From NCBI RefSeq assembly GCF_030013595.1, contig NZ_CP122768.1: a stretch of DNA of 64,000 nucleotides, one strand, 5' to 3'. The notes beneath the pieces were generated by a model. That model saw only the letters and a program-made list of their open reading frames with translations. It made no database searches and was not told the DNA's origin. How positions within the stretch are numbered: position 1 is the stretch's first letter; the number at the start of each line of letters is the position of its first letter. Source of the DNA: Escherichia coli (GTDB taxonomy: Bacteria > Pseudomonadota > Gammaproteobacteria > Enterobacterales > Enterobacteriaceae). This document shows, in pieces, positions 33,867-50,430 of the stretch. Made by a program: the position numbers and the translations under genes.

Positions 33867-34352
33867 ATGCGTAAATTAACTGCACTGTTTGTTGCCTCTA
33901 CCCTGGCTCTTGGCGCGGCTAACCTGGCCCATGCCGCAGACACCACTACCGCAGCACCGGCTGACGCGAAGCCGATGATGCACCACAAAGGCAAGTTCGG
34001 TCCGCATCAGGACATGATGTTCAAAGACCTGAACCTGACCGACGCGCAGAAACAGCAGATCCGCGAAATCATGAAAGGCCAGCGTGACCAGATGAAACGT
34101 CCGCCGCTGGAAGAACGCCGCGCAATGCATGACATCATTGCCAGCGATACCTTCGATAAAGCAAAAGCTGAAGCGCAGATCGCAAAAATGGAAGAACAGC
34201 GCAAAGCTAACATGCTGGCGCACATGGAAACCCAGAACAAGATTTACAACATCCTGACGCCGGAACAGAAAAAGCAATTTAATGCTAATTTTGAGAAGCG
34301 TCTGACAGAACGTCCAGCGGCAAAAGGTAAAATGCCTGCAACTGCTGAATAA
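33867..34352 (+). CDS. spy: periplasmic ATP-independent chaperone Spy
   Basis: 161-aa ORF with signal peptide and LTDAQKQQIREIMKGQRDQM-type helices. Confidence 0.95.
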   Translation: MRKLTALFVASTLALGAANLAHAADTTTAAPADAKPMMHHKGKFGPHQDMMFKDLNLTDAQKQQIREIMKGQRDQMKRPPLEERRAMHDIIASDTFDKAKAEAQIAKMEEQRKANMLAHMETQNKIYNILTPEQKKQFNANFEKRLTERPAAKGKMPATAE

Positions 34353-34373
34353 TCTTTCAGCCAAAAAACTTAA

Positions 34374-34437
34374 GACCGCCGGTCTTGTCCACTACCTTGC
34401 AGTAATGCGGTGGACAGGATCGGCGGTTTTCTTTTTT
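34374..34437 (+). terminator. spy rho-independent terminator (long GC hairpin followed by TTTTCTTTTTT)
   Basis: CCGCCGGTCTTGTCCAC ... GTGGACAGGATCGGCGG followed by a T-run. Confidence 0.55.
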
Positions 34438-34476
34438 GTTCTCAAACAGATGCAAAAAAAGCCTGATCGCCACTAA

Positions 34477-35977
<1,501 letters not shown>

Positions 35978-35990
35978 TGTTGACTCCGAA

Positions 35991-36010
35991 TGCTGGTTAT
36001 CTATCCAGTG
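35991..36010 (-). promoter_or_regulatory. LexA (SOS) box upstream of cho
   Basis: Reverse complement reads CACTGGATAGATAACCAGCA (CTGG-N8-CCAG variant), 14 nt upstream of the cho start; cho is an established SOS gene. Confidence 0.6.
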
Positions 36011-36141
36011 TAACAGGCGGGGAGCGATTAAAAAAGAGGCGGGTTGATGACAAAGGTTACACCGTCTGACGTGCTACGCCTGTCAGGCCTATTCGACTCC
36101 TGCAATATATTGAATTTGCATAGTTTTGTGGGGCGAATAAG

Positions 36142-36167
36142 GCGTTCACGCCGCATCCGGCGTGAAC
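36142..36167. repeat. REP-like palindrome in the cho-nadE intergenic region
   Basis: CGTTCACGCCGCATCCGGCGTGAAC inverted repeat. Confidence 0.45.
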
Positions 36168-36206
36168 AAAGTACTCTTTTTCGCACAAACCAATATGTGC
36201 AAATTA

Positions 36207-37034
36207 TTACTTTTTCCAGAAATCATCGAAAACGGTAATTGGCGGACGGCGTTTATGTTCGGTTTTCAGATACCAGTTCTCTATTGTTCTGGCGACCTGT
36301 TCAGGTAGGTTTTTCCCTTCCAGATAGTCGTCAATATTGTCATAGGTCACGCCGAGTGCCACTTCATCTGGCAGAGAAGGGCGATCATCTTCCAGATCGG
36401 CCGTTGGGGCTTTCTTATAAAGGTGTTTCGGGCAACCTAATGCCGCCAGTAACTGTTTACCCTGGCGTTTGTTGAGACGATACAGCGGATTAATGTCCGT
36501 ACCGCCGTCACCATATTTAGTGAAGAATCCGGTAATGGCTTCTGCTGCATGATCGGTGCCCACCACGACACCGCTGGTCATACCCGCAATGCTATATTGT
36601 GCTTTCATCCGCTCACGCGCTTTTTCATTGCCACGGACAAAATCGCTCAGTTCAATGCCTGCTTCCCGCAATGCCTGCTCGCTGGCCAATACCGCGCCCT
36701 TGATATTAACGGTTAATACGCGATCCGGTTGAATAAAGGCAATGGCATCCTGGCAATCTTGTTCGTCGGCCTGAACACCATAGGGCAGGCGTACGGCAAT
36801 AAATTGCAGCGATTCGTTGCCGGTTTCCTGGCGCAGCTCATTAATCGCCATCTGGCACAGCTTTCCGGCAAGCGTGGAGTCCTGACCGCCGCTGATCCCG
36901 AGCACCAGTGATTTAATGAACGGATAAGTTTGCAGGTAGCTTTTCAGAAAATCGACACTACGACGAATTTCCTCTTCAGCATTAATCTGCGGTTTTGCGC
37001 CCAGCGCCTTTATTATTTGTTGTTGCAATGTCAT
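36207..37034 (-). CDS. nadE: NH3-dependent NAD+ synthetase
   Basis: 275-aa [20 protein letters not shown] with SGGQDS PP-loop motif. Confidence 0.95.
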
Positions 37035-37235
37035 TGAACCCCTCCAGACAGAAAAGACAAAACTTCCTTAAAGCTAACCCGTTGCTACTGAAACGACAAG
37101 CGACAGCGGGTTGAATGGTGGTTAAAACGTCATACAGGAATCCTCTGAAAGCGGAGCCGTTTCGTTCACGGGCTTGAAAAAGCGCCCAATGTATTCCAGG
37201 CTTATCTAACACGCTGATAAACAAGAGGACGGAAT

Positions 37236-37574
37236 ATGAACAAGAATATGGCAGGAATTCTGAGTGCAGCGGCGGTATTAACCATGCTGGCGGGTTGTAC
37301 GGCTTATGATCGTACCAAAGACCAGTTTGTACAGCCTGTGGTGAAAGACGTCAAAAAAGGCATGAGCCGGGCGCAGGTTGCACAAATTGCGGGTAAACCT
37401 TCGTCTGAAGTGAGCATGATCCATGCTCGTGGTACTTGCCAGACCTACATCCTGGGTCAACGTGATGGTAAAGCAGAAACCTACTTTGTCGCGTTAGATG
37501 ATACCGGACATGTCATCAACTCCGGTTATCAGACCTGTGCTGAATACGACACTGATCCACAGGCTGCGAAGTAA
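37236..37574 (+). CDS. osmE: osmotically inducible lipoprotein E
   Basis: 112-aa ORF with lipobox (LAGC). Confidence 0.9.
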
Positions 37575-46037: not shown

Positions 46038-46083
46038 CTGATGAATCCCCTAATGATTTTGGTAAAAATCATTAAGTTAAGGT

Positions 46084-46152
46084 GGATACACATCTTGTCA
46101 TATGATCAAATGGTTTCGCGAAAAATCAATAATCAGACAACAAGATGTGCGA
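46084..46152 (-). ncRNA. IS10 RNA-OUT antisense RNA (approximate, placed from known IS10 architecture)
   Basis: Known IS10 organisation: pOUT antisense transcript covering the tnp start region; coordinates inferred, not measured. Confidence 0.4.
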
Positions 46153-49825: not shown

Positions 49826-50416
49826 TTAGTATTCAACCTGATGCTTAATAAGCCGATGAAACTGGATCTGCAAGGTATTGATCATTTGCGATGACCAACG
49901 AACAGCGCTGTTTTCGGGTAATGAATGAGGCATCCATACCGACCAGACAAATAATGCCATGCAGATAAAACGTTCCAGTTGGTTGCCCTTTTGGGGAACC
50001 AGGATAGGCAAGCGGAAACGCCAGCGGCATGGCCAGAGCAGTGGAACACCGGCGGGTGTCAGCATATCGGCAAGTATGTGGCTTAAATAACCCAGCACCA
50101 TTCCTTGTAGCGCATCAGCCGGAATGAACCAGCCTTCCGGAACCTTAAGGTAAAAGGTTGCCAGCAGCGCAAATACCGCCAGCAGACTGTGGGTAAAACC
50201 ACGATGCCCAAAAGCGCGGGCGATCGGTTTTGATATCCACTTTAATCGCTGCCCAAGAAACGACTTTGGGTGATCGATGTCCGGTAACAAACACGTCAGG
50301 ATTGCGGAAGGGACAATATGCCACCAGTCACCCTGTGCCAGCACGGGCGTCAGCTCGGCATTTTTGGCAAATACCGCACAAGCAATAGAAAAGAGAAGGT
50401 GACCTTCCGCCGTCAT
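49826..50416 (-). CDS. ydjM: LexA-regulated inner membrane metal-dependent hydrolase family protein
   Basis: Start MTAEGHLLFSIA at 50416 gives 196 aa; LexA boxes immediately upstream. Confidence 0.85.
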   Translation of the reverse strand: MTAEGHLLFSIACAVFAKNAELTPVLAQGDWWHIVPSAILTCLLPDIDHPKSFLGQRLKWISKPIARAFGHRGFTHSLLAVFALLATFYLKVPEGWFIPADALQGMVLGYLSHILADMLTPAGVPLLWPCRWRFRLPILVPQKGNQLERFICMALFVWSVWMPHSLPENSAVRWSSQMINTLQIQFHRLIKHQVEY

Positions 50417-50430
50417 GATAAAACTCACTA

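Follow-up and report, generated by a model that had tools for sequence, protein, structure and literature searches.

A LexA operator overlapping the apparent promoter of the Escherichia coli excinuclease gene cho and its conservation across Enterobacteriaceae

The 64-kb stretch of Escherichia coli DNA analysed here, referred to as the window, carries a 20-bp site at the 5′ end of cho that is very probably the LexA operator of this SOS-inducible gene, covering its −10 element and start and acting by occlusion. Cho is a UvrC-like nuclease of nucleotide excision repair. The operator is already known and has appeared in lists of the LexA regulon since 2000-2001. The main gain of the present study is therefore a comparative confirmation of the site in 79 of 79 enterobacterial loci, with little import beyond correct annotation. 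The overlap of the operator with a conserved extended −10 element adds a small anatomical refinement, which is new but minor. The features discussed below are collected in Table 1.

Table 1. Features of the cho locus, with positions numbered as in the window
Feature	Position	Strand	Basis
Gene order astE-spy-ves-cho-nadE-osmE	E. coli chromosome		RefSeq annotation
Sigma-28 (FliA) promoter of ves, AACGTAAATCACCCGAGTTGCCGATAAC	34476-34503	+	Exact match to FliA ChIP-seq site (PMC4183435)
ves, HutD-family protein, 191 aa, convergent with cho	34555-35130 (RefSeq start)	+	ORF, RefSeq, NCBIfam NF008488 (428 bits), Pfam HutD
Overlap of ves and cho coding 3′ ends, 41 bp, tail to tail	35090-35130	both	ORF and RefSeq coordinates
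cho (ydjQ), excinuclease Cho, 295 aa, GTG start at 35977-35975	35090-35977	−	ORF, RefSeq, NCBIfam
Shine-Dalgarno sequence GGAG, 6 nt before the GTG of cho	35984-35987	−	Sequence and 86-95% conservation (box positions +24 to +27)
LexA operator (SOS box) of cho, CACTGGATAGATAACCAGCA	35991-36010	−	Sequence, matrix score, published box, conservation
Predicted cho transcription start, about A36000	35999-36001	−	Inferred from the usual 7-nt spacing after the −10 hexamer
Extended −10 element TGtTACACT, overlapping box bases 1-4 (promoter role inferred)	36007-36015	−	Box-anchored profile
GCCTC-TTTTTT, conserved tail of the nadE terminator	36030-36040	−	Alignment; T-run 74-100% conserved
REP/BIME-type repeat cluster between nadE and the cho promoter	36060-36170	−	Strong hairpins, z = −4.1
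nadE, upstream of cho in the same orientation	36207-37034	−	ORF, RefSeq

The gene downstream of the site is identified from its protein sequence as cho, encoding a homologue of UvrC, by an equivalog model and the RefSeq name. A Pfam search of the protein at E ≤ 0.001 returned no match, and NCBIfam was therefore used, which settled the identity. The excinuclease Cho equivalog model NF007833 matches with 579.2 bits against a cut-off of 367 and covers residues 1-287. Models of UvrC match the N-terminal part alone, with scores under the UvrC cut-offs. The locus is close to universal in the species: a 1.9-kb query around the site finds matches with coverage of 80% or more and 95-100% identity in 5,424 of 5,426 complete E. 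coli genomes, and RefSeq names the genes in the matching genomes ves, cho and nadE.

The site is an imperfect 20-bp palindrome, with a CTG-N10-CAG core at 35993-36008 and a centre, GATAGATAAC, that is 70% A/T. A spacer of 13 nt (TTCGGAGTCAACA), which includes GGAG, separates it from the GTG start codon. The first-pass annotation had placed a LexA box at 35985-36015 on the cho strand, 14 nt upstream of the cho start, and both statements hold, the distances agreeing within counting convention. Its title, however, assigned the box to the 3′ junction of ves and cho. This was a misplacement, as the box belongs to the 5′ end of cho, with some 860 bp between it and the junction, and the two are separate features.

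The CTG-N10-CAG core on its own is poor evidence for LexA sites and should be read with caution. It occurs 28 times in the window, where dinucleotide shuffles lead one to expect 12.3 and never gave as many as 28. The excess probably reflects codon usage, both CTG and CAG being frequent as codons. Because the bare core is uninformative, a position weight matrix was used as the test instead; it was symmetrised and built from 17 published boxes (Table 4 of PMC3009722), with the cho site left out. Under this leave-one-out matrix the cho box scores 19.3 bits, ranking first among the roughly 64,000 20-mer positions of the window and falling inside the range of validated LexA boxes scored in the same way (13.8-28.1 bits). 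Among 500 simulated 64-kb sequences generated with a first-order Markov model, 19.3 bits or more was reached anywhere in 4.

Conservation across species provides further evidence for the site. Cho was the query in one scan of GTDB species genomes, which gave 80 loci at 69-98% protein identity, drawn from Escherichia, Salmonella, Citrobacter, Enterobacter, Klebsiella, Kosakonia, Raoultella, Cedecea, Buttiauxella and other genera, and 79 of these Enterobacteriaceae loci, at 69-95% identity, have an intact 5′ end and were usable. Each of the 79 has a LexA box upstream of cho, with best scores of 15.3-24.9 bits, situated 11-16 nt (mostly 12-14) from a start codon that is GTG in 75 of them. Outside this spot, these loci contain 437,991 other 20-mers, of which none attains 15 bits. 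When 78 loci are aligned on the box, the resulting profile has ACTG at positions 2-5 and CAG at positions 16-18 conserved at 100%; in the right arm, 10 bp from the left one, an A is also conserved at 97%. The centre of the box, the flanking spacer and the DNA farther upstream vary freely.

The same picture emerges within E. coli. The box is unchanged in four strains, K-12 included, and all polymorphisms among them spare the box, the −10 element and the Shine-Dalgarno sequence. K-12 MG1655 carries the 20-mer and its flanks as they stand here, at the same position before the same gene. Two substitutions upstream of the box, both in unconserved intergenic DNA, distinguish it from the window strain: the first falls in the promoter spacer, the second on the upstream side of the T-run of the nadE terminator.

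LexA dependence and UV induction of cho are documented in the literature. A 25-mer, TACACTGGATAGATAACCAGCATTC, is given upstream of cho among the UV-induced genes of MG1655 (PMC3009722), and it is identical to the window sequence. A review of the SOS response lists cho (ydjQ) under 'known SOS box' with reference to Fernandez de Henestrosa 2000 and Courcelle 2001 (PMC6590174); statements on the cho box in PMC6590174 and PMC11228462 credit its first description to these two studies. The box has a heterology index of 7.5, and cho expression is 5.1-fold lexA-dependent (PMC11228462). In that study AZT does not induce cho (0.77-fold by RNA-seq), with lexA dependence still present. LexA is also stated to normally regulate cho in PMC3820734, and according to a 2026 preprint, UV raises cho expression 2.4-fold in exponential phase and 36.6-fold in stationary phase. 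In Salmonella, ydjQ has a single box with a heterology index of 6.69 and rises 3.3-fold with nalidixic acid; fluorescence from a ydjQ::gfp fusion was not detectable. Of these observations, the AZT result and the silent fusion count against the operator. cho is not among the LexA promoters treated in a single-cell preprint. The earlier proposal that cho is SOS-induced through LexA is thus supported by the matrix score, the conservation in all 79 loci, the identity of Cho, and published UV induction and lexA dependence.

The geometry of the site suggests how LexA may act on it. An invariant TG-n-TA lies directly 5′ of the box and, with box bases 1-4, forms TGnTAyACT; in the box-anchored profile of 78 loci, T at −5 is conserved at 96% and G at −4, T at −2 and A at −1 at 100%, followed by the invariant ACT. 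In the window this corresponds to an apparent extended −10 element, with TG at 36015-36014 and the hexamer TACACT at 36012-36007. A sigma-70 consensus scan of 34300-37300 found no promoter, because no −35 hexamer matches at cho. The −35 position of the putative promoter is occupied by the T-run at 36035-36030, after a GC-rich segment. The promoter bound by LexA would accordingly be of the −35-less, extended −10 type. Its geometry predicts a start near 36000, which would place the box at about −10 to +10. Since the operator would then lie over both the −10 element and the start, promoter occlusion is the likely mode of repression.

In the proposed mechanism, a LexA dimer would occupy the CTG and CAG half-sites, 10 bp apart, covering the −10 element and the likely start, so that RNA polymerase would be excluded from the cho promoter. 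DNA damage would lead to RecA-stimulated self-cleavage of LexA and thereby free the promoter. The freed promoter would give an mRNA with a very short leader, as implied by the 13 nt between box and start codon; we estimate this leader at about 23 nt, with GGAG as Shine-Dalgarno sequence ahead of the GTG start.

Other LexA operators are situated over or near −10/+1, including those of ruvA and of Salmonella SOS genes, whose boxes often overlap the transcription start (PMC8072944). They share the CTG-N10-CAG dyad with cho. The ruvA box, CGCTGGATATCTATCCAGCA, resembles the cho box in its CTGGAT...ATCCAG character and scores 19.1 bits, compared with 19.3. However, cho is distinguished from these operators by its apparent extended −10 promoter without a recognisable −35 element and by a box unusually close to the start codon.

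The putative cho promoter, lacking a −35 hexamer, is placed right over the tail of the nadE terminator. Where genera have no REP insertions, the alignment shows a clean hairpin, GGCGGC-N4-GCCGCC-TCTTTTTT, a short distance past the stop codon of nadE, and this hairpin with its T-run appears to be the nadE terminator. In E. coli the 5′ arm of the terminator has apparently been displaced by the REP cluster. In the predicted fold, the whole cluster is bridged by pairing between an upstream GAAAAAGAG and CUCUUUUUU (36030-36040, 36173-36182). The cluster also contains a match to the Rfam sRNA family ES036 (CssrF) at 36085-36127 on the minus strand, with 44.3 bits against a gathering score of 37.6, located between two REP-like hairpins. 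The matching stretch is a dispersed repeat, with a median of 4 and a maximum of 15 places in each E. coli genome, and so resembles the central motif of a REP/BIME-type element more than an sRNA gene particular to this locus. Nothing relevant on ES036/CssrF was found in the literature.

Three other readings of the site were weighed against an operator that occludes the local promoter. LexA might serve mainly as a roadblock for read-through transcription that originates at nadE or at a promoter farther upstream. nadE does lie upstream on the same strand, the REP cluster disrupts its terminator stem in E. coli, and a canonical −35/−10 pair was not detected at cho. Against this, a conserved extended −10 element is found exactly at the box, and in most genera the conserved GC stem and T-run upstream resemble a working nadE terminator, so that we consider a predominant roadblock role very unlikely. 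Conservation could also stem from the cho promoter alone, that is, from the −10 region and the start, given that the invariant TGnTAyACT extends into the left arm of the box. The fully conserved CAG and the 97% conserved A of the right arm, exactly 10 bp away, would then go unexplained, as would the dyad symmetry and the lexA-dependent expression, which makes a promoter without a LexA site highly improbable.

The remaining reading, a chance CTG-N10-CAG devoid of LexA function, draws on the abundance of the bare core, which exceeds that in shuffled sequence. It is difficult to reconcile with the highest matrix score in the window, a score rarely seen in simulations, or with a position and half-sites that are kept in every usable locus, across many genera, while the neighbouring DNA drifts; a published cho SOS box and LexA-dependent expression weigh against it as well. 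Score, conservation and published box together effectively refute a chance match, and its probability is negligible. A LexA operator acting by occlusion of the cho promoter remains the reading that we favour.

The other end of cho is organised differently. The first-pass annotation described ves and cho as convergent, with 3′ ends overlapping by about 40 bp, and the coordinates give 41 bp. No terminator-like site was found at the junction, and given this coding overlap, overlapping (antisense) ves and cho mRNAs are unavoidable in E. coli. The annotation went on to suggest that transcription of one gene may interfere with that of the other. This is supported in part, as the ExcludonFinder catalogue, which is derived from RNA-seq coverage and defines membership of the excludome from at least 50% of 58 transcriptomes, includes cho-ves among the convergent excludons of E. 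coli (PMC12288877). Neither the length nor the presence of the overlap is conserved, however. The two genes overlap by 4-73 bp in 52 of the 79 loci, a number that includes 14 loci with the 41-bp overlap (Escherichia, Citrobacter) and 16 with an overlap of 23 bp. A gap of 3-48 bp separates them in 5 loci, ves lies about 1.7 kb from cho in 3, and in 19 (Salmonella, Klebsiella, Raoultella and others) ves was not found in the cho flank. The junction showed no conserved structure, with fold z-scores of only about −2.

The site in front of ves is an exact match to the FliA ChIP-seq site assigned to this gene (PMC4183435), which places ves, convergent with the SOS-regulated cho, in the flagellar late-gene regulon. 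In a functional excludon, SOS-induced cho and sigma-28-driven ves would repress each other through polymerase collision or the action of RNase III on the RNA duplex. The 41-bp coding overlap without a terminator-like site, the catalogue entry, the FliA promoter and the occurrence of an overlap in 52 loci are all compatible with such a device. The variable length of the overlap, the gap in 5 loci, the distance or absence of ves from the flank in 22 loci (Salmonella and Klebsiella among them) and the lack of conserved structure at the junction weigh against it, and the variable overlap together with the frequent absence of ves beside cho argues against a conserved mechanism. A coverage criterion, moreover, flags any expressed gene pair with overlapping coding sequences. 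Mutual repression at this junction is thus unlikely.

Like the other catalogued convergent excludons (PMC12288877), cho-ves consists of convergent genes with overlapping transcripts; unlike excludons that involve only UTRs, its coding sequences overlap too. A functional excludon is defined by mutual exclusion and dependence on RNase III; cho-ves is a candidate for one. We judge it quite improbable that in Escherichia and Citrobacter the pair works as an excludon linking the SOS response with the sigma-28 programme of late flagellar genes. If such an excludon did operate, cho transcription would silence ves, or FliA-driven ves would damp cho, and this might contribute to the uneven induction of cho by AZT (none) and by UV in exponential and stationary phase (2.4-fold and 36.6-fold).

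The one strong hairpin near the junction, CCCTGCGGTTG-TAAAA-GCCGCAGGG on the minus strand (35044-35071), is a perfect, GC-rich one of 11 bp. It falls within the ves coding sequence, towards its 3′ end and some 19 nt past the stop codon of cho, and is not followed by a U-tract. The hairpin is kept with G-U changes in other Escherichia and is absent from Citrobacter and Enterobacter. It was rejected as a conserved junction element, being specific to Escherichia.

Elsewhere in the window, two overlapping LexA-box matches at 50431-50468 lie directly upstream of the ydjM ORF (49826-50428, minus strand). These sequences, TACTGTACGCATAGACAGTT with 16.6 bits and CACTGTATAAAAATCCTATA with 12.9 bits, rank second and third in the window by the LexA matrix. 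ydjM is an SOS gene with a heterology index of 9.0 and 8.6-fold lexA-dependent expression (PMC11228462). A further candidate, CACTGGATAGATTATTAGCA at 51977-51996, agrees with the cho box over its first 12 nt. It was rejected as a LexA box because the CAG arm is missing and the score is 6.5 bits. It is located at the 3′ end of a pair of minus-strand ORFs spanning 51971-52830, which overlap in different frames (52045-52830, 261 aa; 51971-52264, 97 aa). The arrangement suggests that these two ORFs are the N- and C-terminal parts of one gene, split by a frameshift or as a pseudogene in this strain, or by a sequencing error.

Two RNA matches complete the survey of the window. A full-length Rfam match to RNA-OUT (46083-46152, minus strand, 98.8 bits) indicates an IS10/Tn10-type insertion sequence in this strain. 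The Rfam phenylalanine leader peptide/attenuator matches at 61343-61467 on the plus strand with 74.4 bits.
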